A DNA stretch of 64,000 nucleotides from the IMG/VR virus record IMGVR_UViG_3300036836_000008, one strand, 5' to 3'. The notes under the pieces are model-generated. The model worked only from the letters and a program-made list of their open reading frames with translations, was not told where the DNA came from and made no database searches. Numbering within the stretch: position 1 is the stretch's first letter; the number at the start of each line of letters is the position of its first letter. A program made the position numbers and the translations under genes. Positions 5,305 through 23,498 of the stretch are shown in pieces. The stretch is from an uncultured virus (IMG/VR IMGVR_UViG_3300036836_000008) (taxonomy: Duplodnaviria; Heunggongvirae; Uroviricota; Caudoviricetes).

Positions 5305-5620
5305 AATGATTTATTCCTCCGGGAAGTTACCGAAATTGCCGTCAACGGCTATCTTGCCGCTTTGAATGCTCATTACCAAAGCGTTGAAATGAATAGTACA
5401 TAGGTTATGAGGAATAATCATATCCTCGGCGGGCCGGATAGCTACAGAAAATGATGGAGGCATATTACACCCATCAAATCGCTCTAACCCTCTACGCTCT
5501 GCTGCTGTAATCGATGCATAATCTACTGCATCACATTCGATATCGTGAACCTGAACCATATCAGGTGTCAACGGTGTTGCAGTAATAGCTAACAATATAA
5601 CCTTCCTTAACTTATGAGAG

Positions 5621-5712
5621 AGGAAGCACAGGGAGTCGAACCCTCACCCCGGAATTAAACCGCGATGGCCCTGATTTCCAGTCAGGTTAGGCAACCATGC
5701 CAACGTACTTCC
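5621..5712 (-). tRNA. tRNA-Ser(GGA)
   Basis: CCTGA-CTGGAAA-TCAGG, long variable arm, TTCGACT T loop. Confidence 0.8.
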
Positions 5713-5713
5713 A

Positions 5714-5762
5714 TGAGAGAATCTTGATACACCCACACCATAAAGGTATCTCTCACGTGGGC
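5714..5762 (-). ncRNA. inter-tRNA pseudoknot with HDV-like topology
   Basis: GCCCAC/GTGGGT crossing TGAGAGA/TCTCTCA, inner ACC/GGT. Confidence 0.35.
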
Positions 5763-5767
5763 CAACG

Positions 5768-5857
5768 CGGAAGGTAGAGGTTTCGAGCCCCTGCCCGGCT
5801 ATTAACCCGACACCCTAGCTTTCAAGGCTAGTTGCAGAACCATCTGCGGTACCTTCC
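5768..5857 (-). tRNA. tRNA-Ser(TGA)
   Basis: CTAGC-CTTGAAA-GCTAG, long variable arm, G73. Confidence 0.85.
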
Positions 5858-6236
5858 AATACCCCGAAGGGCAATACTTAATTATATCACAATTAGTCGT
5901 CTTGCTCTACTAGTTGTAAGGTTACATCTGGATCAGAATAAAGCCAATTTAGTGTCTCAGCAGGATCACTCTCTGCAAGTTTACGATCAGCATCTAGCTG
6001 CTCTTCAAAGGTAACGTTTTGTAGGTCATCCAGATAATACATACCTCTTATAGTTACCTCTACCCACCTACCCATCAGCCGGTGAAGTGGTTAACGAGAG
6101 CGATGATGGCCCAAAGTACAACACCAACGACTGTTAGCCAAAGTACAACACTTAGAATCCAAATCTTACCGAAGTTACGGAAGATCCATTCAAATGCCTT
6201 ATCCAAAACGTTTCTCCTAAAATTAGTTTACTTGCG

Positions 6237-6318
6237 TGGAAGTGGTGGGGCTCGAACCCACGTGGACCAACTACGGCATTATAATCCCCTGTTTATAAGA
6301 CAGGACCGATACACTTCC
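6237..6318 (-). tRNA. D-armless tRNA-like RNA, anticodon TAT (Ile)
   Basis: GGAAGTG/CACTTCC-A acceptor, 7-nt linker instead of D arm, CCTGT-CTTATAA-ACAGG, long variable arm, canonical T arm. Confidence 0.65.
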
Positions 6319-6322
6319 TTGA

Positions 6323-6442
6323 ATCAAGCGGAGGTCTTGCACCTCTCGTACCCTCAGCGCAACTAGTATTTGCTGTCTCCCTCGTGGCCTTTGAAGTCTG
6401 AACGGGGCGCTCCTAGAGGGATCTCCTCTCAGCTCGCTTGAT
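6323..6442 (-). ncRNA. promoter-initiated tRNA-like structured RNA
   Basis: ATCAAGCG/CGCTTGAT terminal stem, GAGG-TGCAAGA-CCTC T-like arm; starts 7 nt below a -10 box. Confidence 0.55.
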
Positions 6443-7724: not shown

Positions 7725-7795
7725 TAGGATAGTTTCTAGGTCTCGGTGACTTTGTGGTCAGCTACCCTAAGGTACTATCAACCCGTTAGATGATT

Positions 7796-7896
7796 GCTGG
7801 CGGCCCTGAGAGCGTAACACTCTAACCATCGGGTTTCCCATCCTGGTTTAAAAGCCTTTGGATGGGCTTCAGGCTCTTATCTAGTGTTAGACCAGC
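7796..7896 (-). ncRNA. multi-branched structured RNA
   Basis: GCTGG/CCAGC closing; CCTG/CAGG enclosing CCCATCC/GGATGGG, AACC/GGTT and AGAGTG/CGCTCT hairpins. Confidence 0.45.
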
Positions 7897-7900
7897 TAGC

Positions 7901-8155
7901 TTACTTCTTCTTTTTCTTGTTTGCCTTGTCAACGATTTCCTGAGCCTTCTTTAGGTCACGATCACGTTCAGCCTGAGTCTTGGCTAGATACTTGTTAGTC
8001 TTCGGCTGAACTACCTGCCTAGCTGTAGCCAGGAATACCTCATCTACTTCACCGCGCTTAACCTTATTAGGATTAAGGTCTTTCTTAGGCAAGATACTAA
8101 CCTCTTTCTTTTTAGGAAAACTTGGTGCTGGCAGAATGCGATCCAACTGACTCAC
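7901..8155 (-). CDS. Lys-rich hypothetical protein
   Basis: 84-aa basic ORF. Confidence 0.55.
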   Translation of the reverse strand: MSQLDRILPAPSFPKKKEVSILPKKDLNPNKVKRGEVDEVFLATARQVVQPKTNKYLAKTQAERDRDLKKAQEIVDKANKKKKK

Positions 8156-8205
8156 ATGTCTCTCATTCTTTTACCTAGTCCTAGGCCAGCTATGTGATTT
8201 TGATA

Positions 8206-8295
8206 GGACAGGGCGGAGATCTTGCACTCTCCTGGGATCACCGTGCTACCAGAATTGCTGCGGAATCGAACCGCACCCTCTATGTGACCCTGACC
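8206..8295 (-). ncRNA. double T-arm tRNA-like RNA
   Basis: CAGGG/CCCTG closing; TGCGG-TTCGATT-CCGCA and GGAGA-GTGCAAGA-TCTCC. Confidence 0.5.
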
Positions 8296-8312
8296 TTTTC
8301 GTTAAGTTAAAG

Positions 8313-8401
8313 GAGCAGCAGGTTTCACCGCTTTATCGAGCGGGAGTGACCCTTTATAGGGATGGTTAGGCCCTTATATTCGGTAACCAGCCGAACTACT
8401 C
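8313..8401 (-). ncRNA. cloverleaf-like RNA without tRNA consensus
   Basis: 7-bp GAGTAGT/GCTGCTC stem enclosing three hairpins. Confidence 0.4.
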
Positions 8402-8406
8402 GTGCG

Positions 8407-10449: not shown

Positions 10450-11280
10450 TCACTTGTTGAAACCCCAACCTTGCTTGTTGAATTTTTTACAAGAGTGAGC
10501 GACCTCGCAGAATGAGCAGCCTGCATTATCACTCTTCGGCTCGAAATTTTCATCCCACACATCGCGCATCATACTAGAGATTCGACCCCACATTTCTGCA
10601 CGCATCTCATTGGTGAATTCAAACTCCTTAACCTGAGTTTGGCAAAGAGGCTGAATAAATCCACACTTCTTAGGTGGTTTGCCGAACATAGCAAGAATGA
10701 CCAGATCGTAGAATACGAGCTGTCCTAAGCTCTTCTTCCAGTATTCTTCATCTGCTGTAGTCTTCAAGTCCCATACGATAAAGTTTCCATCGTTATCACG
10801 TACAAGTAGGTCGAATTCACCACGTAAGATAATTTCTTCTACCTGACCTGTCTTTGGATTCTGAATCTTGACAGGCTCGTAGAACCACTTGCCAGGCTCA
10901 TAATCATAAGGAAGTATACGAGTCTCCAGAATTGGCTGTAAAGCCTTTAATGCTTCCACGCAGGTAGTGCGAATATAGGATCTGTCATTCTCGTGACGCC
11001 ATTTGATGACATCACTTTCCTGAGCTTCTTTCACAGACTTCTCAAAATGCTCATCCAGTAAATCTGTCATGTCGCCTGAAGGGTTTTCCAGCCAGGCTTT
11101 TTGCACAGAGTCCACTACAGTACCTGCAAGAAAGTTTCGCACATCTCTGCCAGGAATGGATAGCTTTTTGCTGACTAAGTATTGCTTTTGCTTACACAAT
11201 TCGAAGCGCTGAAGAGAACTCCAACTTAATTTATATCTGTCATCTGTCATTTTAGTCCTTAATTTGAGCTGATCACTCAA
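10450..11280 (-). CDS. PD-(D/E)XK Cas4/RecB-like exonuclease
   Basis: LSWSSL..FELC, GEFD...DLKT, QL.FY, C-terminal CxxC-x5-C. Confidence 0.85.
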   Translation of the reverse strand: MSDQLKLRTKMTDDRYKLSWSSLQRFELCKQKQYLVSKKLSIPGRDVRNFLAGTVVDSVQKAWLENPSGDMTDLLDEHFEKSVKEAQESDVIKWRHENDRSYIRTTCVEALKALQPILETRILPYDYEPGKWFYEPVKIQNPKTGQVEEIILRGEFDLLVRDNDGNFIVWDLKTTADEEYWKKSLGQLVFYDLVILAMFGKPPKKCGFIQPLCQTQVKEFEFTNEMRAEMWGRISSMMRDVWDENFEPKSDNAGCSFCEVAHSCKKFNKQGWGFNK

Positions 11281-11502
11281 TTATACCAGGACTATCGTAG
11301 CAGCTCAAGTCGCCTCTGATGGTACTTATTGCGGCAGTGCCCTTTTTCATAGATGTAAGCTGTGCGCTCATTCAAAAACGGCATGACAAAAGGGCACAGG
11401 CTACAAGAGAAAAAATACATATCATAATCACTATCTTTGAAAACGATTGTAAATGTAGTAGCCATGTGCCCTTCACCTACCTGAAGCTAAAGTTAAACTT
11501 TA

Positions 11503-12498
11503 CTATCCAACATCGGTTAGTAATGCCTCTACTGCTTGCTCGAAGTCTTTGCCCATGTTTAATTGTCTAATTTTAGCCATAACAGATTCTACTGATGTAA
11601 GTTCAATCGTAGTCTGGCCTACAGATGCAAGAAATTCATCTAGATGAATCTGTTTCTGCTTTTTCTCGGTAACCTCAGCTACTCGAAATACCTCACTAGC
11701 TGGACGTGCATCTAGTTCCTTGAATTCAAATCGCCCTGTGACGGAATCCCATATCGTATATCCGACAGGTCTGGTAAGGTTAGACTCTGTAAGTGATCCT
11801 CTTGACAATGCCCCATAGTTTGCAAATCGCACGCCGTTGACGACATACTCCCCATGCCAATCATGGATGTGACCATAAATGACTTGTACATTTGATTTTC
11901 CAAATGGGTTAACGTATCGAGAAAACTTTTCGACGGAGTAGTGTTCATAAGCTGGATTACTTCCTGGTGGAAAGAATGGTGCATGAGTTACGATGAGCTG
12001 CGGAGTATCTAGTGGCTGGAACTCTGACAGAGCTGACTTTACTGCTTGATCTGCTACAGACTGTTCAGCATCCCAAAACTGCTGCCAAGGTACTCCATAG
12101 ATAGGTAGGAAATTATTCAAGCCTCGTGGCAACTTCAAATACTTCTCAGCTCGTGTGACAGCACCAGAGGAATACATCAAACCTAAAGGTTGTCCCTGAT
12201 CCAAACTATCCAATCTATCGTTAAGCAGATCGTGATTACCAGGAACGATAAACACAGGAACAGGTGAGCAGTCTTTAGCCCAATTGATTGCTCGCTGAAC
12301 AAGAGCTAGAGAGTTAGCAGATGGAGCCTTGATATGAAAGAAATCCCCTAGCTGTACGATAGCGTCAACCTTACCCATGGTCTCAGCTCTAATCTGATAG
12401 AGCAAATCAAACAGATCATCAGTGTATGTTGCAGTACAGCTAGCGGGATGTCTATTGTCGTTAGTCAGGTGTACATCATTGATTAAAGCTACTCTCAC
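11503..12498 (-). CDS. SbcD/Mre11-like metallophosphoesterase nuclease
   Basis: DVH, GDFFH, GNHD, GHIH motifs. Confidence 0.85.
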   Translation of the reverse strand: MRVALINDVHLTNDNRHPASCTATYTDDLFDLLYQIRAETMGKVDAIVQLGDFFHIKAPSANSLALVQRAINWAKDCSPVPVFIVPGNHDLLNDRLDSLDQGQPLGLMYSSGAVTRAEKYLKLPRGLNNFLPIYGVPWQQFWDAEQSVADQAVKSALSEFQPLDTPQLIVTHAPFFPPGSNPAYEHYSVEKFSRYVNPFGKSNVQVIYGHIHDWHGEYVVNGVRFANYGALSRGSLTESNLTRPVGYTIWDSVTGRFEFKELDARPASEVFRVAEVTEKKQKQIHLDEFLASVGQTTIELTSVESVMAKIRQLNMGKDFEQAVEALLTDVG

Positions 12499-13123
12499 TC
12501 ATACTCCCTGAACTTGTTTCGTACCTCAGTCTCGGTCATGAAACCGGCGACAGTCTTGGCATAATCGTCAAGGTTTTCCTTTTCCAGTTCTTCAATCCTG
12601 GTATTAGCATGTTTGATAGCAGAATGCGTATCAAACTTAGCGCGAGGAATGCCACCAAGATTAGCACTATAATCTCCAGGAACTACAGCTGCCTTTTTTA
12701 ATAACTCTTCAGCAATCTTTAAATTGGTTACCGCATCCTTTAAGCACGTAAGACTTTCCTGAAGGTCTCGCTTAATGATAGTTAACAGCTTAGGATCTTC
12801 AGTCTGAGCCTTATTCCATCTACGGAAGTTTGTCATACTCAATTCCTGCCCTCATTCTCTCAGCATCATATTCAGTAAGAAATGCAGCCATATTACCTAC
12901 ATAAGCACTAGTCCCATTATCTTCACCCTCAAGGACATTGGTGTAGAACTTGATATACCAATTAGACCGATCAATCAAGCTCCAAATTTTAGTAGAGTCA
13001 AGACTAGTACTGTGTCTATAAAGCTTTCTAAGGTAAGGCAAAGACACTTGCATAGTAAAAAGTTCCTTCTCTATCAACTTACGCACCGCTGCTCGCAATA
13101 CAGGATCATTGCGGTAATCCTCA

Positions 13124-13429
13124 TTAGCTTTCATAAGGCTTTCCCTTCGTATGGATACTGATGATATCAAGAATAGCGTTTTCAGCAATACCTGTCTGCA
13201 TCAGCATACGAGCCTGTGTGAACCATCTTTCATGTGCCCAGCCTTCCCAAGTAGGCTTGGGATAGTTAGGAACATTCTCATATTCCCAAGTACATTGATC
13301 TGTGTGATCTAATGTACAAAATGCTGCATGAAGATGCACAGCAAACTTCTTAACTACAGCAAAGTCGTCCTTTTCTTGGCGATACTTGCCGTAGCCACTA
13401 GGATCTGGTGAGTAGTTACGAATAGTCAT
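13124..13429 (-). CDS. hypothetical protein, likely leaderless
   Basis: TGG-TAGGAT-N6-ATG; LH..FC...HTD.C.W.YE. Confidence 0.6.
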   Translation of the reverse strand: MTIRNYSPDPSGYGKYRQEKDDFAVVKKFAVHLHAAFCTLDHTDQCTWEYENVPNYPKPTWEGWAHERWFTQARMLMQTGIAENAILDIISIHTKGKPYES

Positions 13430-13444
13430 GACCTCATCCTACCA

Positions 13445-13490
13445 CAAAAAAGCAGATGGGGCCACCCCTGATACGGAGCAACCCCATCTG
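13445..13490 (-). terminator. intrinsic terminator
   Basis: CAGATGGGG/CCCCATCTG hairpin followed by T6 on minus strand. Confidence 0.6.
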
Positions 13491-13502
13491 TAGGAGAACT
13501 AA

Positions 13503-13886
13503 CTACTTCAGCATATCGACAATAAGCTTAGCCCACAGTTTTGCTTCTTTATCTTTTGTGTAGTGGATATCGTTATCCCATGGAACCATTTCTACTTCGT
13601 ACTCGTGTAATGTGAAGAATCTATGGATGCACGGAAGGAAATCCCATTGTTCACGTATTTCATCTAATGGGCGTTTACCTTCAATATCGATAGCAAAACC
13701 ATCAGAATCGATAACAAAAGCATGCCCCATGTAATCTTCTGATCCTGCTGGCAGATCACTGACCAATGCAATAGTCCAACCTGTCAGTTTGTGAATTTCC
13801 CATGCAAGTGCATTACATTGTCCGTGTGTGAAGTATTCGATAACATCAGCATCATCGGTAAACGTCACATAATCTTCCAGGATCAA
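13503..13886 (-). CDS. hypothetical phage protein
   Basis: FT.GQC..LA...HA...D..G pattern (possible transglutaminase/papain-like triad). Confidence 0.55.
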   Translation of the reverse strand: MILEDYVTFTDDADVIEYFTHGQCNALAWEIHKLTGWTIALVSDLPAGSEDYMGHAFVIDSDGFAIDIEGKRPLDEIREQWDFLPCIHRFFTLHEYEVEMVPWDNDIHYTKDKEAKLWAKLIVDMLK

Positions 13887-14010
13887 AATACATACACCTT
13901 AAACCACAGAACAACCAGAAGTATCCATACTAGCCAAAATACAATCATAGCCCATGCTGCACGAGGTCTAAGTTTATCTACTCTCTCTAATCTCTGTTGG
14001 ATCTCCCCGT

Positions 14011-14034
14011 GGGATACATACTTACCTACACTTC
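14011..14034 (+). repeat. dispersed 24-bp motif copy 1
   Basis: GGGATACATACTTACCTACACTTC. Confidence 0.85.
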
Positions 14035-14045
14035 GATAGCGTGGA

Positions 14046-14522
14046 TCAAACTCCATGAATAAACCTTTCTATAGCATCCATGTGCTCTGGACGTAGCCCT
14101 CTGTTAGCCTTAGGGCGAATCAACAAAACCCGGCCTGAAGCTTCCAGCTTATCTAATAAATCTCCGAATAAAGGGATCGCCTCGTCGTCTGCCCAAACAA
14201 GCCTGGAACCTGAATCAACAATTGCCTCAGCGGCTCTCTGCTTGTCTGTGATGCTCATAGGTGAGTCAGAGTATGAGTCGAAGTGAGGCAACCCCAAAAG
14301 CTTTTCGATAGCGTCGGTAGAGCCACACCATGTTGTCCCCCAGACGATCTCAATCTTGCCAGATTTGTGAAGATTCCACAACCTTTTCACAAGAGCTGGT
14401 GCCCAGCGAATCCTCCACCCATTACCCATAGCATAAGCTGTGCCTGAGTGTGGAGCTGATGACCATCCTGCCTTGCTGGCATTAAGTACTCCATCAACAT
14501 CTAACAGTAATATAGTCTTCAT
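14046..14522 (-). CDS. HAD-family phosphatase (RNA-repair-type HAD domain)
   Basis: LLLDVDGVLN, WGTTW, WADDE. Confidence 0.8.
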   Translation of the reverse strand: MKTILLLDVDGVLNASKAGWSSAPHSGTAYAMGNGWRIRWAPALVKRLWNLHKSGKIEIVWGTTWCGSTDAIEKLLGLPHFDSYSDSPMSITDKQRAAEAIVDSGSRLVWADDEAIPLFGDLLDKLEASGRVLLIRPKANRGLRPEHMDAIERFIHGV

Positions 14523-14542
14523 AGCCGAAGTGTATCACAACA

Positions 14543-14579
14543 AAGACGGTCCTGACCATAGTTGATCAGGACCGTCTTT
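14543..14579. terminator. hairpin/terminator
   Basis: AAAGACGGTCCTGA/TCAGGACCGTCTTT inverted repeat. Confidence 0.55.
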
Positions 14580-14587
14580 ATATTAAT

Positions 14588-14977
14588 TTAGCAAGGTAGG
14601 TCGCGTCTGGTAGGATCAGCGATAGAACTTACTCTATTCGCCCAATCAGCACCTGATGCACGACGATTAGGCTGCATGTATCGATGCCAGCCTGACAAAT
14701 AGCAGTTAGCGTTATCGAAGATAACAATATCTCTGCTAGTACGATTCCAGAAAGAATTCGCCCAATTGTCATAGTTAGCTGGTAGATCGATGCCACCTTC
14801 TGCACGAATAACTGCAAGCTGGTAAGCTACAAATGAGCCTGAAGCGTCGTTGTTATTCCACATGCAGAAAAAGCCTGATGCACACTGATTCCATGTAGCA
14901 TGTGCTGGACTTGCTACGAATAAGGAACCTACAACTGCTAGTAATGAAACTACCAGAGTTGCAATCCATCTTTTCAT
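14588..14977 (-). CDS. secreted peptidase inhibitor family I36-like protein
   Basis: signal peptide (PAHA), CASGFFCMW...G, NWANSFWNRT, NRVSSI; TAATG-coupled to upstream gene. Confidence 0.7.
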   Translation of the reverse strand: MKRWIATLVVSLLAVVGSLFVASPAHATWNQCASGFFCMWNNNDASGSFVAYQLAVIRAEGGIDLPANYDNWANSFWNRTSRDIVIFDNANCYLSGWHRYMQPNRRASGADWANRVSSIADPTRRDLPC

Positions 14978-16050
14978 TAACATCCTCCTACAGTACCTGG
15001 CTTAGTTGGACCATTAGCTGCTGCGAATCCAGGTCCACCGACATTGAAGTATCGACGGTTACCTGGACCTGAGTCTGCGATACCCTCAATAGCCTTTACA
15101 TCATATGCACCTGGCATATCAGGTTCAAATGCTGGATCACTTGCTGGATCTGGAGTCATGTTTACTACAGACTTAGGAAGACCTGCAAACTCGATATCAC
15201 CAATACGTGATCCAGAAGCCGGGTATGGTCCGTTAGTATTAGTTGCTAAATTACCGTTGCCCATATCAGTACATGGGTAGCCATCAAGTTGAGGGTTAAC
15301 TACAGGATCATACTTACTAGCAACTTCACCGAAAACCTGAGTTAGGCCAATTGTCCAATTGGGATCTGCTGTTGCAGCCCAATTGGAACGAGCGAAATGG
15401 CCGATCCATTGAACTGGCTGTGTCCCATAGCACGGAGTTGCCCATAGCATCATATCTCGGGTAGTCGCATTTTCACGAATGCCCATGCGGAATGAGCATC
15501 CCGCAGGAGAATCTGCTAAGGTGTCCTTCAGATCCAATGAACTACCATAATCAGTCCAACCACAAGATCCTGTTGTTCCATCAGGATAGCAAGTAGCTAC
15601 ACCATCTTTCCAGTGGTAGCCAAAAAGACAAGGAGTTGTCAATTGTCCACACCAGAGACCCTTACCCCAACCAATTTCTACCTGTTGCTTACCATCAGCA
15701 GAACGGGTACTAATCTCCATTAGAGAATGGTATTCTTGAGGGGCCTTGTAGATGTTGCGGATTGTAAATCCTGCATTGACGCCTAATGTTCCAGTAGGAA
15801 CAAACTGGTAAGTATCGCCCCAGTATCGGTAAGTGTCTCCGGGCTGAATTGCATCATCAGCAAAAGAAGATGCCTTGCCGCCAATTGGTGGAGGTGGGAA
15901 CTTGATTAATCCATCTGTTCCTCGTGGAGCATTATCAACTGCTGCGGCGATAGGTACAAAAGTATCTGCTTGAGCTGGGCCAGCTACAGCCACAGCGCCT
16001 GTAAATATTACAATAGCTGCCGTGGCGACACCAACAATTCGTCTGATCAT
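14977..16050 (-). CDS. secreted neprosin-family (glutamic) peptidase
   Basis: signal peptide, HSLMEI, QVEIGW, LFGYHW..G..TCY, QVFGEV, CTDMGNG. Confidence 0.75.
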   Translation of the reverse strand: MIRRIVGVATAAIVIFTGAVAVAGPAQADTFVPIAAAVDNAPRGTDGLIKFPPPPIGGKASSFADDAIQPGDTYRYWGDTYQFVPTGTLGVNAGFTIRNIYKAPQEYHSLMEISTRSADGKQQVEIGWGKGLWCGQLTTPCLFGYHWKDGVATCYPDGTTGSCGWTDYGSSLDLKDTLADSPAGCSFRMGIRENATTRDMMLWATPCYGTQPVQWIGHFARSNWAATADPNWTIGLTQVFGEVASKYDPVVNPQLDGYPCTDMGNGNLATNTNGPYPASGSRIGDIEFAGLPKSVVNMTPDPASDPAFEPDMPGAYDVKAIEGIADSGPGNRRYFNVGGPGFAAANGPTKPGTVGGC

Positions 16051-16278
16051 AAGATCTCCGTTCTGATTACATGAAAAAAGGCAGAAGCTTTTACACTCCT
16101 GCCTTCACCTATATAGGTCTTATCGACCCTTTTCCTCTGGATCGATGTTGCGATCCTTAGGCTTGTTCTGATCCTTAGGACCGTAGTTCTTAGCCCCAGA
16201 ATTCTTCTTCTTAGCTGCTTCACGTGCCTTGTCGTTGTCAGCCAAAATAATTCTCCTAGAATCTATTTACACATTAAG

Positions 16279-16353
16279 GGTGAGTAGGGGGAATCGAACC
16301 CAACCTCCAGCGGAGTCACAATCCACTATGCTAACCGTTACAACATACCCACC
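16279..16353 (-). tRNA. tRNA-His(GTG)
   Basis: GTGGA-TTGTGAC-TCCGC, G-1 present. Confidence 0.85.
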
Positions 16354-16354
16354 A

Positions 16355-16439
16355 TGGAGAATAGTAGCAGGACTCGAACCTGCATGAGGAGTAAGCACCC
16401 TACCTCGCTAACGTCTGTCGATTTCGCCATACTATTCTC
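16355..16439 (-). ncRNA. anticodon-less tRNA-like RNA ending in CCA
   Basis: 8-10 bp acceptor, Leu-like D arm, irregular single arm, GCAGG-TTCGAGT-CCTGC. Confidence 0.6.
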
Positions 16440-16565
16440 TTTCGCAATTCTACGAGTATCGATCCTCATATTTTTGCTACTACTAAGTCTAAGATGCTGG
16501 CATTTATTTGTGTATTCATACCCATCAGTTAATCGTTTCAGATACCTACTGATGTCTTAGACAAG

Positions 16566-16638
16566 TCGGGAAGCCGGGATTTGAACCCGGGCCTGAGCCT
16601 TCCAAAGGCCCCCGTCTACCTGACTAACGTACCTCCCG
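16566..16638 (-). tRNA. tRNA-Pro(TGG)
   Basis: C1, GGGCC-TTTGGAA-GGCTC. Confidence 0.8.
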
Positions 16639-16977
16639 AATGTGCGAAGCGTTTCGTCGCCTAGACCCAATGGTTCGGCTAGCAGCTATTATGCTCCGCA
16701 GTCCTGCTGTTAGGACTGTATTACCAGTTTCTTATCGTGGTGCCTTACTGTTACATGTTTGGCACAGAATTTGTTATCAGGATTGTCCTTTACTTTTTTC
16801 TGTGGTCGCCAGCATGAGTGTTCCTTGCAAACATTCTTCTTCATGTAAAACTGATTTGAGTCTGGGCATCAGTTAAGCCACCAGTTATTTTTATTGTTGG
16901 CAGAATCACCCGCTATCTGCCGCTGTGCACACACGCCTCCCTGACCTACATGCACTCCCATTCTATTATACAATATG

Positions 16978-17052
16978 TCTGGGTAGAGGGATTTGAACCC
17001 CCGGCCTCAGCACCCCAAATGCCGCGCGCTGACCAAACTGCGCTATACCCAG
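16978..17052 (-). tRNA. tRNA-Pro(TGG)
   Basis: canonical cloverleaf, CGGCA-TTTGGGG-TGCTG. Confidence 0.9.
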
Positions 17053-17055
17053 ATA

Positions 17056-17170
17056 TAACATCCCTAGAGTCGATAGTTTCCACACAGTCTATCGCTTCTT
17101 CACAACAGCTTCCCTAACAGTGTGGAAGTTAGGTACTGGCAGCGCCGGGTCTTTCACCCGAAGGATGTTA
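17056..17170 (-). ncRNA. kissing-loop structured RNA
   Basis: TAACATCC/GGATGTTA closing, CGGG-TGAAAGA-CCCG, loops TTCCACAC and GTGTGGAA. Confidence 0.6.
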
Positions 17171-17179
17171 AGCTTTACA

Positions 17180-17256
17180 CACAGAGCGTGCTTACCATTA
17201 CACTAAACAGGTCACCCTCAAGGCCCTGCATCCGTACTTACCGGCTCTTCTCTGTG
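17180..17256 (-). ncRNA. circularly permuted tRNA-like RNA
   Basis: CACAGAG/CTCTGTG terminal stem; canonical D arm at 3' side. Confidence 0.45.
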
Positions 17257-17268
17257 CTTCTACGTTCT

Positions 17269-17298
17269 ATCTTACCCTACCTTAGGAGGATCTGTCAA
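17269..17298 (-). promoter_or_regulatory. sigma70-type promoter
   Basis: TTGACA-N18-TAAGAT. Confidence 0.55.
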
Positions 17299-17512
17299 GC
17301 GAAGATGCCAGTCAACTTGTTAGCTATGTAGGTATCCAACTCACTTTGAGACATCTCTGCGGTAGGAGGATAGTCTAGATAAGTAACTACCTTACCGTTG
17401 AAATATATGGTAAGTCTCTTACCTGTCACATTACCGTTCTCAAGAATTTCAACGAAATCTGCTGTAATCATTGCAATTCCTCCTATAAATATCAACTTAT
17501 AAATTGAATCGG

Positions 17513-18157
17513 TCAGAAGGAATTACATTCTCCACCGTTGGCACATACAAGCATACCGATATGGGTGTAGTAATTCAGCAAAGAGAACAGCAAGAAGAAT
17601 CCACCAGAAATCTTCCACATAACACTTGCCAGCATAGCTCCCCAAGGCTTATCTGAAAACCATACAGCCATGGTTCCTATAGCAGCAGCCAGGTATACCA
17701 GACCAAATGTAGTATTCTCCCAGCCCTTGAATTGCCCTGTAATAGGTTCAATATCAGGAGCATCACCTACTAGGTTGAATCTGAAGATTGCCATGGAAAT
17801 AGCAAACAACATAACACCTAGTACAGCAATCAACCCGCGAACTGGCTTCCAATCAATAAGGACTGTGTATCCTGCTGGAGTCATATTCAACCCTCGACTT
17901 AGGAAATATCCTGCAATGACTGCAAGTACACCTAGAAGTAAACTAGGCTCAGCAAATGCGATGTTGATAGGTGGATTAACATGTAGCGGCCATGTTACTG
18001 CCATCATAAAAGATAAAACAGTAAGTGGAATACCCGCTACCAGCAGAGCAATTCCATGCCCTATCAGACGTTGAGTTTTGTACTTAAGAATTACACTAGA
18101 CATTGTTAGAATAACAATTCCAGCTAGCACACCCATCAAGGTGTTGTACAGAATCAT
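17513..18157 (-). CDS. DUF981-like multi-pass membrane protein
   Basis: YNTLMG, TWPL...NIAFAEP, YYTHIG; about 6 TM segments. Confidence 0.6.
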   Translation of the reverse strand: MILYNTLMGVLAGIVILTMSSVILKYKTQRLIGHGIALLVAGIPLTVLSFMMAVTWPLHVNPPINIAFAEPSLLLGVLAVIAGYFLSRGLNMTPAGYTVLIDWKPVRGLIAVLGVMLFAISMAIFRFNLVGDAPDIEPITGQFKGWENTTFGLVYLAAAIGTMAVWFSDKPWGAMLASVMWKISGGFFLLFSLLNYYTHIGMLVCANGGECNSF

Positions 18158-18530
18158 ATATAACCTCCTATATCTTGCAGGAAGCTATATCGGTTAGCGC
18201 CAATTTTCTACGATGAATCTGGCACGAAATGCCGGAGGTAGCTTAAGTACAGCTCTATTTGCCTTAGAATTAAGTTCATAATACTTAGGCGTAGGTTCCT
18301 TACTCTTCGTGGCTCGCTGTCCGTACATATACCGGTTAAGTTTATCGCATGCTGCCTGAGCAGCCGCAATATCCTTATCTAGCTTAGCGAGTTTTGATCC
18401 GATACTCATTGTTATCTCCAACATCTAGGGCAAGCACAATCCTGGCGCTTACCTGTCTGTTTGCGAATACAAGCGTCATGTCTGTTTAGTGAACAGGGCC
18501 AACAATAGTTTATTGCAAACATAATGAATT

Positions 18531-18749
18531 TCATGGTGCGATACCTGTATCCCAAGAATAGTGGTTATCTTCATCTTCAGGGTCACCTTCGTATGCAGAA
18601 ACCCAGTTTTCATACTCATCGCCTGTTAGTGCGCGAACCATCTGATCGATAGTCCAAGTCTTGTGATGAACACTATCAACCTGCCCCCAATTATATGCAA
18701 CTTGGAGTGCAGTTTCGATACGCTCAACCATATCATCATTACTTAACAT
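18531..18749 (-). CDS. hypothetical protein starting at tRNA-like 3' end
   Basis: GQVD..HHKTW.IDQMVRAL, WD.GIAP. Confidence 0.65.
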   Translation of the reverse strand: MLSNDDMVERIETALQVAYNWGQVDSVHHKTWTIDQMVRALTGDEYENWVSAYEGDPEDEDNHYSWDTGIAP

Positions 18750-18750
18750 G

Positions 18751-18884
18751 CGAGGCACTAGGGATTCGAACCCTAATCCTGGGCCACTTTTTCCCTGCTA
18801 CTCCGTTCGATGCCACCCACGGTGGTCTTAGACTACTAGTTTCGCAGGTACTCGGCGGCCCTGTGCTACCATACACTATACCTC
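18751..18884 (-). ncRNA. tRNA-like RNA with 71-nt insertion replacing the anticodon loop
   Basis: D arm, GGGCC/GGCCC stem, T arm TAGGG-TTCGAAT-CCCTA. Confidence 0.65.
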
Positions 18885-18936
18885 TCACTCAGGTAGCTAG
18901 TCTGAGTGCAGCTACAGATTGATCAGATCTGCAACG

Positions 18937-19057
18937 TGGACCGAGAGGGATTCGAACCCTCTTACGCGCGCTCTCTCCTGAAAACTGAAAAGAATAATGT
19001 CACCATTGACTGTGTACATCAGCCTGGAAACCTATTCTACCAGAGTTCGATCGGCCC
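18937..19057 (-). ncRNA. Ala-identity tRNA-like RNA with pseudoknot
   Basis: GGGCCGA/TCGGTCC-A (G3.U70), T arm, AGAATAG/TTATTCT pairing. Confidence 0.65.
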
Positions 19058-19068
19058 TAGTTTTTGCG

Positions 19069-19137
19069 TGGACAACAGTGGATTTGAACCACTCAGGACG
19101 TTCCTCCGAAGAGGAGCCCTGCTCACCTAGATCGCCC
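19069..19137 (-). ncRNA. minimal Ala-identity tRNA-like RNA (tmRNA TLD-like)
   Basis: GGGCGAT/GTTGTCC-A (G3.U70), stemless D loop, UUCG-capped arm, T arm. Confidence 0.65.
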
Positions 19138-19141
19138 TAGT

Positions 19142-19179
19142 GCCGGTTCCTACATTGATTAAAGGGAGGTAAAACCGGC
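19142..19179 (-). repeat. covarying hairpin with anti-SD loop, copy 1
   Basis: GCCGGTT-TTACCTCCC...AATGTA..-AACCGGC. Confidence 0.6.
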
Positions 19180-19187
19180 TGAACTTA

Positions 19188-19673
19188 TTACCTTAATAGG
19201 AACCAAGTACCACACCTATTCCACTTTGACTCATTACAGTCTTTGCAAGCCCTAACAAAATTATACCAAATATTAGATCCACCCTTACTCACAGGAAAGT
19301 AATGATCATCGTGCATAATAGGTTTTACTGCCCCACAGTACCTACAGGAATCCTTAGCGATGGCTTTTCTATATTCTCTAGAAATTAAAGCATCTTTGGG
19401 ATCTAACTTGAGAAGACGGTTTTTATACACAGATTTATAGTAACGATTTAATTCAGGATTAGCTTTCCTGTACGCTGCCTTATAAGACTTAATATCTTCA
19501 GCATTAGCCTCTCTATAGGCTTTACGTTTAACTAATACTGTGTCTCTATTTTTAACATAGTAGGTTTTGTTGTAGTTCTGCCTACATTCTTTGCAAGTGT
19601 TTCTACGCCCGTTGCCATCCTTGGCAAAACTGTCCAGTGATTTAGAGACACCGCACTTATTACAAGTTTTCAT
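19188..19673 (-). CDS. HNH endonuclease
   Basis: CxxC N-terminus, CRYCG..DHYFP..GG.N...N...AC..CN. Confidence 0.9.
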   Translation of the reverse strand: MKTCNKCGVSKSLDSFAKDGNGRRNTCKECRQNYNKTYYVKNRDTVLVKRKAYREANAEDIKSYKAAYRKANPELNRYYKSVYKNRLLKLDPKDALISREYRKAIAKDSCRYCGAVKPIMHDDHYFPVSKGGSNIWYNFVRACKDCNESKWNRCGTWFLLR

Positions 19674-19752
19674 GTCACTCCTAGTAGGGTAGGAAGGGAC
19701 AGGCCCTACCCTGTCCCTAACCCATCTTACTACAGAAGTAAGACAATTTCAA

Positions 19753-19786
19753 CTCAGTTCATACATTTTTGGGAGGTAAAACTGAG
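19753..19786 (-). repeat. covarying hairpin with anti-SD loop, copy 2
   Basis: CTCAGTT-TTACCTCCC..AATGTA..-AACTGAG. Confidence 0.6.
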
Positions 19787-20215
19787 CCAACTCCGTCCCT
19801 GGTGCTTCTAGTCTAACACATCGGTTCGTACTGTCAAGCTCTACCGCATACCTGCTTGTGGAGGGTTAACCTTAATCATAGTATCGTAGGTAATTCCCGC
19901 AGGTTGAATAGGAAGCTCTACAGGCGTGTAGTATTCTGGGTTCCTAGACTGGGATGCAAAATCAAGTGCATCCTGCTCGCTAGCAAATACGCCATACTCG
20001 GCCATGTACTTGTTCAGATAAAAGAGAATCCATACTGTCTGCATGCTCATCAGCCTATACCATACTCGACAGACTGTCAAGGCTTCTTTCGCTTCTGCTT
20101 GCTGACATTGCTGTTGCCGTGATCAGGATTGCCCGCAGGTCTTGATCTACCTGTTGGGTGACAGTTCAAGCATGTGCCCATTTTATTCAAGAAAGCCGCA
20201 CAACGAGGACAGATA

Positions 20216-20659
20216 TCACTTTTCGCCATTAGCTCTACCCTCATCTCTACGCCTGATTTTCTCAGCATCGTAATGGATAGTCTCTGTCGGTATGCCAGCA
20301 GCCTTAGCTGCGTTACGGCAGTGTAGCGTGCCCCTAGAATTGTCTCTGAGGAACGCTAGGCAGGCATCAGGCATGCTGCGTACCATCCGCATATTACGCT
20401 TTATTCCAGCGCTGCGTCCATGCATCGCCCAATCAGCCTCATAGATTTCGATTTTGCACTTAAGTACATCTCGTGCGAATCTATCAGCTAAGAAATCTGC
20501 TCCACGAGGACAACCACCATGAACTAGCGTAAACCAGTTGATAGGACCAGATTCATATTCAGGATGATCCTTGACCCACTCTAGAATAACTCTAGTGATT
20601 TCTTCAACTATAGTATCATAGTCATCCCAATCACGAGAGCCTGTAATTAATAGTCTCAT
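20216..20659 (-). CDS. SLOG/DUF2493 (YspA-like) protein
   Basis: LITGSRDW, VHGGCPRGAD, AG..RN..M, SRGT. Confidence 0.8.
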   Translation of the reverse strand: MRLLITGSRDWDDYDTIVEEITRVILEWVKDHPEYESGPINWFTLVHGGCPRGADFLADRFARDVLKCKIEIYEADWAMHGRSAGIKRNMRMVRSMPDACLAFLRDNSRGTLHCRNAAKAAGIPTETIHYDAEKIRRRDEGRANGEK

Positions 20660-20746
20660 AAGTCTCCATTAAGCCATAGAAACAGCAATAGCCCTAACCC
20701 TACTAGGATCAGAGCTATACCAAAAATCATTACTACAGTGCTCATG

Positions 20747-20848
20747 CTACCATCTATCTATAGCTCGATCACCTATGCCGCCTAGGTGGGGGCAATTTCG
20801 TCCATACCTCAGACGGCAGTATACTGCTGCAATAAAATGCTTTAACAT
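20747..20848 (-). CDS. 33-aa peptide starting at tRNA-Glu 3' end
   Basis: MLKHFIAAVYC...; stop followed after 1 nt by the next ATG. Confidence 0.4.
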   Translation of the reverse strand: MLKHFIAAVYCRLRYGRNCPHLGGIGDRAIDRW

Positions 20849-20849
20849 G

Positions 20850-20924
20850 TAGAATCGACGGGATTCGAACCCGCATCATCCTGATTGAAAGTCAGGGGAC
20901 TTAGTCCATTTAGTCTACGATTCC
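20850..20924 (-). tRNA. tRNA-Glu(TTC)
   Basis: CCTGA-CTTTCAA-TCAGG. Confidence 0.9.
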
Positions 20925-20928
20925 ATGG

Positions 20929-21037
20929 CCCTATCTGGCTGGCCTTGTCCAGCGTTGAGCTATCACCTCAACTGGTCTTGAGAGTACTTTAGTCTGAACG
21001 TGATAGGCTCAATTCATTTCCTCTACACCACATAGGG
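20929..21037 (-). ncRNA. structured RNA with long central arm
   Basis: CCCTAT/ATAGGG, TTGAGC(C)TATCAC/GTGATAGCTCAA, GCTGG/CCAGC. Confidence 0.45.
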
Positions 21038-21100
21038 ATGGCTGACAGGTAAAGTGCTTTTAACGTTGCGACCTGTCATTCACAACAAAGGGTGGGTACC

Positions 21101-21277
21101 CTAAAAATCAAATTCATTCTTCTTAACGCCTGCAATAAATGCTCGCCACTCATCTAGAGTATAACGACACTCATTGCCGAACAGATCATATACAACAACA
21201 GTACCTGGCTCAGACACTGCGTCAACCTCAACACAGGTTCCTGAGGCACAAAATGATGACTTAATTTTATTCTGCAT
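21101..21277 (-). CDS. DUF397 protein (BldB/AbaA-like), 58 aa
   Basis: KSSFC.SGTCVEV...EWRAFIAGVKKNEFD; below ORF-track cutoff. Confidence 0.8.
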   Translation of the reverse strand: MQNKIKSSFCASGTCVEVDAVSEPGTVVVYDLFGNECRYTLDEWRAFIAGVKKNEFDF

Positions 21278-21278
21278 G

Positions 21279-21349
21279 TAGCCCGACGGGGAATCGAACC
21301 CCGACCGTGAGACTGAGAACCTCGTGTTCTACCATTAAACTACCGGGCC
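21279..21349 (-). tRNA. tRNA-Glu(CTC)
   Basis: cloverleaf, loop TTCTCAG. Confidence 0.8.
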
Positions 21350-21416
21350 ATTCTGTGAGCGAAACGCTTAGTCAACATACCCGGGATGCTACTTGCCTGT
21401 CTCGCTCACATGGACT

Positions 21417-21445
21417 ACTTTACTACGTTGTTGAGCTGCTGTCAA
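21417..21445 (-). promoter_or_regulatory. sigma70-type promoter
   Basis: TTGACA-N17-TAAAGT. Confidence 0.6.
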
Positions 21446-21590
21446 CCCCTACTTCTAGGGCCTTTGCTGTCTTTACGCTTAGAAGCTTCATTTAAGGCTT
21501 TGGAACATCCTGTATAAGTAAACTTACCATTACCAGCATGCCCTGAATTGCCTGTCATGTTCTTAGCGTTTTGATTAACTTTCTTACCCA

Positions 21591-21911
21591 TTACTTGAGT
21601 CCTAGTTCCTTCAATGCGAGATCATGGCTTGCATGACGTAGGCAATATTCTGGAATCCAAATCTTGTACTTGAACTTTTTCTCTATCTCAGAGTAATAGA
21701 TTTCAATGTTAACAGGCTTTGACATTCCATCAGAATCGATAAATGCATTGCGCTTCTCTAGATTAGGTAGCACTGCTGGAATGTTCTCGTATCGAATGCT
21801 TACCCATTCACCTTTTTCTCGGCGAGAGAATAGGCCAAACCCATTTGTAACCATTAAGATAAATACAAATAGTACTAACCATCCCCAATTAGCCTCTAAA
21901 AATTCTCCCAT
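21591..21911 (-). CDS. membrane-anchored protein starting at tRNA-Leu 3' end
   Basis: MGEFLEANWGWLVLFVFILMV... Confidence 0.6.
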   Translation of the reverse strand: MGEFLEANWGWLVLFVFILMVTNGFGLFSRREKGEWVSIRYENIPAVLPNLEKRNAFIDSDGMSKPVNIEIYYSEIEKKFKYKIWIPEYCLRHASHDLALKELGLK

Positions 21912-21912
21912 G

Positions 21913-21986
21913 TGCTCACGGTGGGATTCGAACCCACACTGTACCGATTTTAAGTCGGTTGCCTCCTGCCTTTGGGCTACGCGAGC
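21913..21986 (-). tRNA. tRNA-Leu(TAA) (bldA-equivalent anticodon)
   Basis: ACCGA-CTTAAAA-TCGGT, A73. Confidence 0.9.
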
Positions 21987-21991
21987 TTGTC

Positions 21992-22075
21992 GGAAGAGAT
22001 GGAGTTTAGCATGTCGGTAATGCCCGGCCAAAGCCTGTGATTCAGCCGCAGGTGCCCGCTAAACATATCTCTTCC
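21992..22075 (-). ncRNA. structured RNA upstream of tRNA-Leu
   Basis: GGAAGAGAT/ATCTCTTCC and GTTTAGC/GCTAAAC stems with branched top. Confidence 0.45.
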
Positions 22076-22393
22076 AAAGACACAACCTGAGGGATATTAT
22101 CCAAGGCGCTCAGGTTGGGTAAAATTAATTAGGGTTTTCGATAGTAAGGATTTCACCGTGAGATTCGATACGGTCAACAGTAACCACATCATCAGGGGCA
22201 AACCAGAACTGCTTAATGCAAGGAATTAACCCTTCAGCCATAGCCCACAATACAGTAGGATCGTAGGTATTACCTGTAATACCGATTGCTGTACTTGTTG
22301 TACCTGATGCGTTAACGAAATATACCATATACATTCCGCCGTTGACGTGGTTGACTGCCATTTAATTATCCTAACTATTCGGTTAACCTAACG

Positions 22394-22467
22394 TGACTCC
22401 GGTCAGATTCGAACTGACACTACTCAGGGTCTAAGCCTGATTCCTCTACCATTTGGGATACGGAGCC
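22394..22467 (-). tRNA. tRNA-Leu(TAG), short variable loop
   Basis: TCAGG-CTTAGAC-CCTGA. Confidence 0.85.
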
Positions 22468-22502
22468 ATAGAAGAGATAAGTATCTGAGCTTTTGAATTA
22501 AG

Positions 22503-22586
22503 TACCCGTGACAGGATTCGAACCTGCACGCCTTGCGGCATTGGAGCCTAAATCCAACGTGTCTCCCTAATTTCCACCACACGGGC
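22503..22586 (-). tRNA. tRNA-Leu(TAG), long variable arm
   Basis: TTGGA-TTTAGGC-TCCAA. Confidence 0.85.
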
Positions 22587-22931
22587 ATAAGGTAAGGAAT
22601 CCACAGGAGCATGGGATTCACATGGTCGGCGTGGCTACCGCTCTTACTTACCTTGAGTATTCAATTAGATTTGATCGTGAGAGCCGTACCAGCAGTATTC
22701 GCAAAGCCATAGCATAACTATTTCATCACGGATCTCTGCCAGGAAAGGATCTTCAGTGTAGACAACTACACCTTCACCTTTCTTGAGCTTCCATCGGCCC
22801 AACCAGTCTTCCTCGGTACCTACTGGATAAATCTTACCATCGCAGAAGTCACCTTGACAAGCTCTATATTGCATGTTATTTCTCCTAAGTTAGTAGTAAA
22901 CGTCTCTTGTCACGTACTAACTTAGATCTTT

Positions 22932-23498
22932 TCAACTGAAGTGCTTACGAACCTCGGCAAGTGCTGCTGACATTTCTTTGACTTGCTCACTCAATCCTAC
23001 CAGAGATGCCTGCATCTTGGCAAGTTCATCTGTCAACTTCTTGATTCTAACATCCTGCTCATCAACATAAGGCCAAGGTTGCTGTACGCCAAGCCTAGCG
23101 TCTGGTAGAAACTGCTCATACGGTGCTGGCTTATCTGGAGCTGGCTTAGCGAATACCATCCAAGGTGTAAACTTACGTCCAGCTCCGGTAAAGATCTTAT
23201 ATGCAATAGCTACATTAGTAGCTGGATCTCTCCAACGTCCTCCTGCGGCCTGAATCTTAGGATACTGCCAGCGTCCGGATAGTTGGAAAATGCCGTGATC
23301 TCGATTACCAATACTACCAGGATCAGATGTTAATGGTGCAGTAGTACGAGAAATAGCTTCTGAATCTGCACTAGATTCCGCTAAAGCAACAGCGACAGCA
23401 ACTACTGCCTCAGAATCAGAAGTTCCAGGAACTATAGTAGTCTTGCTGAATCCTGCCTTAATGACAAGATCTGCTACTTCATGCGGAGATAGCTTCAT
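22932..23498 (-). CDS. lytic transglycosylase-like (SLT/lysozyme fold) protein
   Basis: AVAVALAESS...D.GIFQ...DPATN...A..I....F.PW; C-terminal coiled coil. Confidence 0.7.
   Translation of the reverse strand: MKLSPHEVADLVIKAGFSKTTIVPGTSDSEAVVAVAVALAESSADSEAISRTTAPLTSDPGSIGNRDHGIFQLSGRWQYPKIQAAGGRWRDPATNVAIAYKIFTGAGRKFTPWMVFAKPAPDKPAPYEQFLPDARLGVQQPWPYVDEQDVRIKKLTDELAKMQASLVGLSEQVKEMSAALAEVRKHFS

Follow-up and report, generated by a model that had tools for sequence, protein, structure and literature searches.

An uncatalogued structured RNA with a T-loop, a loop E motif, and predicted kissing loops in a phage tRNA operon

In the window analyzed here, a 64,000-nt stretch of DNA from an uncultured phage, every one of the 26 tRNA genes lies on the minus strand. 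Directly ahead of one of these genes lies a 115-nt sequence in which the initial annotation had noticed paired hairpins with complementary loops. The locus raises the question of whether a real RNA is encoded there, to which known RNAs it is related, and what such an RNA would do in a tRNA operon. Structure prediction and shuffling statistics indicate that the minus-strand 115-mer is very probably a genuine folded RNA. It is an uncatalogued structured RNA and, in the searches described below, an orphan.

Predicted fold and motifs of the 115-nt RNA

The predicted elements of the RNA are as follows:

17056..17170, minus strand: the 115-nt RNA, predicted to fold as a four-way junction, P1-P2-P3-P4
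17161..17170, minus strand: 5' strand of P1, paired with 17056-17065 over 8 to 10 bp (pairing probabilities)
17056..17065, minus strand: 3' strand of P1 (pairing probabilities), 3 nt upstream of tRNA-Pro
17146..17160, minus strand: P2, putative T-loop hairpin with the loop UGAAAGA at 17150-17156 (predicted fold and T-loop consensus)
17113..17133, minus strand: upper P3, a 6-bp stem and 9-nt loop with the kissing 8-mer UUCCACAC at 17120-17127
17134..17137, minus strand: AGUA strand of a loop E (bulged-G) motif, with the partner strand GAA at 17110-17112
17066..17099, minus strand: P4, consisting of 3 bp, a 2x2 internal loop, 6 bp, and a 12-nt loop with the 8-mer GUGUGGAA at 17078-17085

The secondary structure elements named in the initial annotation were all recovered on the minus strand. 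The 8-bp closing helix had pairing probabilities of 0.65 to 1.0 and can be extended to 10 bp by U9-G107 (0.93) and U10-A106 (0.43), and the two 6-bp hairpin stems had probabilities of 0.96 and 0.92 to 0.93. The hairpin CGGG-UGAAAGA-CCCG is present as described, and its loop, in which the energy model also closes a U-A pair, is assigned as a putative T-loop by its consensus. In the predicted fold, P1 joins the three arms through linkers of 0 to 1 nt, forming a near-perfect four-way junction in which P3 and P4 are of similar length. T-loops are defined in general terms in PMC1747187. The folding z-score of the 115-mer was -2.63 for the minus strand and -2.41 for the plus strand; the RNA was assigned to the minus strand because the T-loop, the loop E motif, a promoter-like site, and the tRNA genes all set that orientation. 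No minus-strand open reading frame of at least 60 aa covers the RNA; on the plus strand, and so antisense to the operon, a 69-aa frame beginning at 17122 runs over its edge. By inspection after the fact, the 6-bp stems of P3 and P4 (17066-17133, minus strand) keep the strong or weak class of the pair at six of six positions when one is reverse complemented, possibly a relic of an old inverted duplication.

The two loops were said to be exactly complementary, and this holds for the 8-mers UUCCACAC and GUGUGGAA, which are exact complements; the loops themselves are 9 and 12 nt long and leave 1 and 4 nt unpaired. This pair was the sole kissing match in the 64-kb window (the same element being scored on both strands), and no kiss of at least 7 bp occurred in 30 Markov-shuffled 64-kb windows. 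When the 115-mer was dinucleotide-shuffled 20,000 times, an 8-bp kiss appeared once, and the loop E motif and the T-loop hairpin appeared 5 and 188 times, respectively; any two of the three motifs never appeared together, with the proviso that the descriptors were written after the RNA had been seen, so that these counts reflect design rather than a blind test.

The loop E motif had escaped the first reading. It consists of A34-G35-U36-A37 opposite G59-A60-A61, closed by C38-G58, and lies directly below the 6-bp stem of P3, 6 bp below the kissing loop. Its GUA/GA core corresponds to the definition of the loop E or bulged-G motif (PMC2919703). The energy model favors another register of lower P3, in which A34-U64, G35-C63, and U36-G62 pair with probabilities of 0.85 to 0.92 and consume the AGU of loop E. 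Across the window and its relatives, a loose loop E descriptor gave 22 matches against a mean of 12.6 and a maximum of 20 in 100 shuffles, a count from such loose criteria that no conclusion is built on it.

The duplex energy of the kiss is -12.6 kcal/mol, and neither the P3 loop nor the P4 loop is self-complementary. A nested alternative that uses the same eight kiss pairs accounts for 3 to 4% in the energy model, which also closes two weak pairs within the P4 loop (0.38 and 0.33); because of these two pairs, a kissing scan based on minimum free energy structures alone missed the RNA. Forcing open both loops together with loop E costs 2.3 kcal/mol before noncanonical terms are counted. The kiss would probably be intramolecular. 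An 8-bp kiss between parallel arms that have no kink-turn may be strained, and the kiss of the lysine riboswitch requires a kink-turn (PMC3082890).

A compact tertiary fold is supported because three independent motifs co-occur far above chance. The initial annotation had suggested an unrecognized compact fold of the aptamer, ribozyme, or Alu-like type; its compactness and its absence from catalogues stand, and the three types that it named found no support.

Genomic setting and other kissing-loop elements

Among cultured phages, the closest to the window is Microbacterium phage Magritte, with 37% identity in the DNA polymerase and 36% in an Mre11-like nuclease, and the nearest tRNA-Pro alleles are those of Streptomyces phages; because of these resemblances, an actinobacterial host is likely. 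Four uncultured relatives, L001 to L004, share the tRNA cluster order of the window, and their nucleases are 66 to 74% identical to its own. Three features flank the RNA:

17269..17298, minus strand: promoter-like site TTGACA-18-TAAG(A)T, with an equivalent before the same slot in L001 to L004
17178..17258, minus strand: an 81-nt circularly permuted tRNA-like RNA (predicted fold), separate from the 115-nt RNA
16977..17052, minus strand: tRNA-Pro(UGG), the next gene of the putative transcript

The operon order on the minus strand is promoter-like site, permuted tRNA-like RNA, 115-nt RNA, and, 3 nt on, tRNA-Pro. The upstream RNA is predicted to fold like a tRNA that has been opened in its anticodon stem, a layout like that of YrlA; it has a nonstandard T-loop, GUNAGUA, and no GNCGAA motif was seen in it. 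Relatives of it were found at 7477-7559 in L002 (nhmmer E value, 6e-15) and at 7293-7374 in L001, both without the 115-nt RNA. In their alignment, which comprises only three sequences, 87.5% of the cells were paired, and four pairs had changes on both sides. The permuted RNA occurs both with a Ro60 gene nearby (L002) and without one (the window and L001).

The slot occupied by the 115-nt RNA was devoid of it in all four relatives. In L002, the upstream tRNA-like RNA lies 3 nt from tRNA-Pro, with the same neighbors and nothing in between; in L001, L003, and L004, other sequences fill the slot before tRNA-Pro. Because it is missing from this slot in four of four relatives, the RNA is a separate, optional module. 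The slot occupants at 7372-7508 in L001 and 7071-7161 in L003 look structured. An exchange of the RNA as a cassette with its tRNA allele was considered and set aside: the tRNA-Pro gene is 47 to 59% identical to those of the relatives and 84% identical to that of phage Moab, but the relatives differ among themselves by a similar margin (51 to 88%), and for the Glu allele the identity with L003 is 80%.

Further elements of the cluster deserve mention. A 58-aa protein encoded at 17295-17471 (minus strand) has no Pfam match and is found in two relatives just ahead of the promoter; a metagenome scan with it returned two contigs, both matching phages already found. The tRNA cluster also encodes an RNA ligase and a HAD domain of the type found in RNA repair proteins (at 28989-29648 and 14046-14522, respectively, minus strand), which is consistent with countering RNA cleavage. 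Two tandem tRNA-like RNAs at about 18935-19140 (minus strand), and at 6316-6607 in L001, look like tmRNA reduced to its tRNA-like domain, the message part being small or missing; they were missed by ARAGORN and Rfam, and the L001 pair has a kissing element between its members. The L001 kissing element was examined as a possible homolog of the 115-nt RNA and rejected, its apparent T-loop belonging to the neighboring tRNA-like RNA and the one-sequence model described below giving no match. A conserved structured element of about 60 to 90 nt with no Rfam match lies directly upstream of tRNA-Glu(UUC) in the window (about 21040-21085, minus strand), in L002 (5510-5572), and in L003 and L004, and another conserved element lies between two tRNA-Pro genes (about 16890-16960, minus strand; 6657-6790 in L004). 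More nonstandard tRNA-like or structured intergenic RNAs were seen at 5620-5860, 6237-6430, 8200-8340, and 18760-18910 (minus strand).

The count of kissing hairpins covered 247 intergenic segments, 47,104 nt in all, from the window and its relatives, with the 115-nt RNA included, and was repeated on 296 shuffles. Adjacent hairpins with loop complements of at least 6 bp numbered 11, against a shuffle mean of 2.65 and a maximum of 9, and those with at least 7 bp numbered 5, against a mean of 0.42 and a maximum of 3; without the 115-nt RNA, the counts were 10 and 4. The thresholds were chosen after examples had been seen, and several of the 11 hits look like chance. Four kissing pairs lie in the window, near 21007, 17128, 8391, and 7872; all of their loop sequences differ, and by inspection they would not cross-pair. 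The fold z-scores of the other candidates were weak (-0.1 to -2.0).

Individual candidates were as follows. The element at about 20927-21040 (minus strand), between the conserved upstream RNA and tRNA-Glu, has a 7-bp kiss, CUAUCAC/GUGAUAG, and an inverted loop E, and the energy model prefers a long competing hairpin there. The element at about 7793-7903 (minus strand) has a 7-bp kiss and is predicted to form two three-way junctions and a short fifth helix, the topology of the Bacillus Alu domain, with no UGU linker. A 65-nt element after tRNA-Tyr (about 8338-8402, minus strand) has a 6-bp kiss and a fold z-score near zero. In other records, a multiarm RNA with a 7-bp kiss lies between two tRNA-Lys genes (L069, 4828-4950), and a spacer of Streptomyces phage LilMartin (L126, 9468-9600) has a 7-bp kiss containing UGCUGA. 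In Gordonia phage Boopy, an unannotated 116-nt tRNA spacer (L158, 4856-4971), identical in five of five records, has a pair of 7-nt loops with exactly complementary sequences, giving a 7-bp kiss. Anticodon mimicry by such loops was also considered: the P3 loop contains CCA and CAC, codons of the Pro and His tRNAs of the operon, but by inspection only two of six actinophage kissing candidates matched an adjacent tRNA, which is about the chance level, and the idea was rejected.

Homolog searches and the closest known RNA

A match to a known Rfam family would have spoken against the initial annotation, and none was found: at the gathering score Rfam 15 matched only tRNAs in the window, and nothing over 17056-17170 at E values of up to 10. 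With the flanks included in the query, blastn gave no match in cultured phages; a further phage search returned seven short partial matches and a plasmid search three, none of them a true homolog. Four IMG/VR patterns gave 0, 2, 42, and 25 loci and again no true homolog: one of the 42 passed the descriptor, the best model E value was 0.03 over the pattern itself, and none was retained; all of the 25 were checked, and none was retained. A GTDB pattern gave one locus, in coding-looking sequence, which was not a homolog. R1, a model built from the single sequence, found no homolog in most of 5 related records, 27 loci, 8 loci, and 45 further records, nor in 121 genomes of one nonhost phylum; over these searches, the best E value on whole records was 0.3. 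Exact patterns and a model made from one sequence have low sensitivity, and these results do not show absence. The nearest record, G001, lacks the region. Six motif strings had no matches in six of the supplementary files of PMC10690425, and no published description of the RNA was found in a literature search that was thin on subscription journals.

The closest known RNA is RNA C of phage T4 (rnaC, species 1 RNA; NC_000866, 70908-71046), which has the same parts and the same setting but is not an orthologue. Both are small RNA genes lying within tRNA clusters, and both combine a closing stem and a T-type hairpin with two arms whose loops are complementary. The order of parts differs, being stem, kiss, kiss, and T in RNA C and stem, T, kiss, and kiss here, as do the T-loop (tRNA-type UUCGAAU versus UGAAAGA) and the length of the kiss (6 versus 8 bp), and the loop E motif is a feature of the 115-nt RNA. 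The characters of rnaC orthology, namely, sequence homology, the loops UUGACG/CGUCAA, and a 3' tRNA T-arm, were all missing from the 115-nt RNA, and R1 had no match in T4. The loop hexamers of RNA C are invariant in five of five aligned sequences while one arm diverges, a case of conservation rather than covariation.

RNA D of T4 and RNAs I, III, and IV of T5 (103 to 119 nt, stable) resemble the 115-nt RNA in size, multiarm fold, and tight packing with tRNA genes; they have no kiss of at least 5 bp by descriptor and no sequence similarity to it. These T4 and T5 RNAs sit 0 to 6 nt from tRNAs or from one another. As a non-tRNA, structured gene free of open reading frames within a phage tRNA operon, the 115-nt RNA belongs with such tRNA-cluster small RNAs, of which it is a new architectural variant.

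Proposed role and alternative explanations

In the best explanation, in which we have about even confidence, the 115-nt RNA is a small noncoding RNA gene of the phage tRNA operon, of the same functional kind as T4 RNAs C and D and the stable RNAs of T5. It would be cotranscribed with the permuted tRNA-like RNA and tRNA-Pro, its 3' end being freed by RNase P at tRNA-Pro and its 5' end by a cut in the 7-nt linker. The arms may form an H-shaped fold, with P2 stacked on P3, P1 stacked on P4, and the kiss clamping the P3 and P4 tips together; loop E could stiffen P3 or dock onto the internal loop of P4, and the T-loop could accept an adenine supplied by the junction or by a partner RNA. With its ends paired and no long single strand, the RNA would be expected to resist nucleases and would build up late in infection; it would probably be a stable, separate RNA.

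One view of phage tRNA clusters is that they counter tRNA-targeting defense. Because of this, and because the RNA displays tRNA- and rRNA-type motifs, a trans-acting role as a decoy or protein scaffold is favored by analogy, though only tentatively: a rigid look-alike of a tRNA or rRNA surface might titrate a host RNA-binding protein or an RNA-cutting defense factor. The sarcin-ricin loop of rRNA has a GAGA tetraloop adjoining its bulged-G motif; in the 115-nt RNA no such tetraloop stands beside the bulged G, its place being taken by the 6-bp stem that carries the kissing loop. The co-occurrence of motifs, the energy of the kiss, the matched arms, the modular slot, the parallel with T4 RNA C, and the enrichment of kissing hairpins in the clade support a small RNA gene of this kind. 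Weighing against it are the lack of a detected homolog, the register clash in the energy model, the possible strain of the kiss, and the weakness of the other candidates.

An unlikely alternative is that the loops of P3 and P4 pair between molecules, giving dimers, rings, or filaments. The RNA-only assemblies GOLLD and ROOL, found close to phage tRNA islands, are held together by kissing loops between molecules (10.1101/2024.12.08.627333) and share both location and kissing loops with the 115-nt RNA; moreover, its junction linkers of 0 to 1 nt would let P3 stack on P4 with the loops pointing apart, and the four kissing pairs of the window, differing in sequence, would not cross-pair. On the other hand, the similar arm lengths and the four spare nucleotides of the P4 loop suit a turn within one molecule, neither of the two loops can pair with itself, and an RNA of about 115 nt with no Rfam match is far smaller than GOLLD and ROOL (650 to 800 nt).

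Somewhat less probable still is a folded spacer that acts in cis, insulating its neighbors or setting the processing or stability of the tRNA precursor, with no role after release. The 115-nt RNA and other kissing elements directly adjoin tRNA or tRNA-like genes, and the end of P1 lies 3 nt ahead of the RNase P site, as a spacer might; against this, L002 keeps the same neighbors without the RNA, and a T-loop, a loop E, and an 8-bp kiss would be superfluous for a spacer.

We regard as distinctly unlikely a combined reading in which the RNA would be a free-standing small version of the domain I scaffold of group IIC introns, with its T-loop hairpin, loop E arm, and 8-bp kiss, and one of several mutually orthogonal kissing-loop RNAs, unrelated in sequence, used by one phage as RNA-only building blocks, which would self-assemble or present tRNA- or rRNA-like surfaces and so neutralize host RNA-targeting defense.

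A new self-cleaving ribozyme or ligand-binding aptamer is improbable. The hairpin ribozyme comes to mind because two neighboring arms of the four-way junction each carry an internal loop (PMC1747187), and twister-sister has a similar hairpin (PMC7373991). Both twister-sister sequences of that article share the catalytic-loop strands GCAAG and GCUCA, and neither strand occurs in the 115-mer. There was no Rfam match, and a check for the conserved core motifs of the other small ribozymes found those of the hammerhead, HDV/theta, hairpin, and twister ribozymes absent from the 115-mer and a single 4-nt motif of pistol; only GAAA and AGCG were present, with their partner motifs missing. For an aptamer, the lysine riboswitch offers the nearest likeness, with loop E in its first arm (P2) and a kiss between L2 and L3 (PMC3082890), both of which have counterparts here. 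Its five-way junction, kink-turn, and expression platform before an open reading frame do not, the junction of the 115-nt RNA being four-way with almost no unpaired nucleotides for a pocket, and a tRNA gene follows 3 nt downstream, with no regulated open reading frame or terminator.

A question of origin, compatible with the best explanation, is whether the RNA is a miniaturized descendant of domain I of a group IIC intron, retaining stem I, the IA T-loop hairpin, and the alpha and alpha-prime elements, with alpha in IB, and preserved as a free scaffold; we think this quite improbable. Domain I (RF02001) has a stem, an immediate T-loop-type hairpin, a kissing-loop arm, and a GUA/GA core near the kiss, an order of parts that the predicted fold of the 115-nt RNA repeats. 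Among the 14 RF02001 loci examined, a T-loop-type hairpin came directly after the stem in 8 of the 12 listed, and two loci had an 8-bp alpha/alpha-prime pairing, UUGACCAC/GUGGUCAA, with five of eight positions identical to the loop of the 115-nt RNA. In the intron, the GUA/GA core anchors the kiss and the IA/IB stack (PMC2919703). However, a five-of-eight identity has a chance of about 3% per comparison (binomial estimate), and several alpha types were compared. A profile of eight intron 5' segments ranked the RNA second in the window at an E value of 1, and nhmmer and R1 gave no significant match in the 14 loci (best E value, 0.19). Loop E lies 6 bp below the loop, the alpha-prime equivalent is in a hairpin, and the other intron parts are absent: the 5' GUGYG, IC and ID with the exon-binding site (EBS), domains II to VI, and the reverse transcriptase gene were missing, and no intron family matched in the window.

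Two further readings are very improbable. As a mimic of the Alu domain in the signal recognition particle (SRP), the RNA would slow elongation from the ribosomal factor-binding site. Like the Bacillus Alu domain, it has adjacent hairpins, a predicted loop-loop pseudoknot between them, and UGU in between (PMC4231752). The UGU lies in the P3-P4 linker at nt 67, and UGUNR occurs five times in the 115-mer and is hence uninformative. The Alu domain has two three-way junctions, a helix 5 leading to the S domain, other arm lengths, and a 5-bp pseudoknot, against one four-way junction and 8 bp here; no SRP family matched, and the 115-nt RNA has a T-loop and a loop E in addition.

The other, a second Y RNA (YrlB-like) bound by Ro60 as the partner of the upstream YrlA-like RNA, fares no better. 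YrlA and YrlB arise from one precursor in Mycobacterium smegmatis, YrlB possibly has a T-arm, and Y RNAs are marked by GNCGAAN0-1G in a long terminal stem (PMC4201824), and three of five related records encode a TROVE protein; yet the 115-mer lacks this motif and has a terminal stem of only 10 bp, no TROVE domain was found among 30 window proteins scanned, where a Y RNA would have a Ro60 gene within about 4 kb, no open reading frame exceeds 357 aa in 11000-23000 and none at the syntenic place has the length of the Ro frames of the relatives (559 to 580 aa), and the Ro-carrying relatives have GNCGAA RNAs beside the Ro gene instead. Several unannotated GNCGAA-containing Y-RNA-like elements, uncalled by Rfam, precede the Ro60 gene (L123 to L125) at 1690-2270 in L002, 1920-2900 in L003, and 1080-1500 in L004.

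The 115-nt RNA brings together known folding motifs, a T-loop, a loop E, and a kiss, in an arrangement absent from the catalogues searched. The weight of this finding is limited by the orphan status of the RNA. It is small and rich in motifs, each of which can be broken and rescued separately, which makes it well suited to probing and structure determination, and up to three further, unrelated kissing-loop candidates occur in the same genome. PMC3014915 and PMC9697503 still list T4 RNAs C and D and the T5 RNAs as having no known role, and the 115-nt RNA bears on this question. Because the cultured Gordonia phages Boopy and Forza hold an unannotated 116-nt analogue, that question can be tested in a laboratory host.
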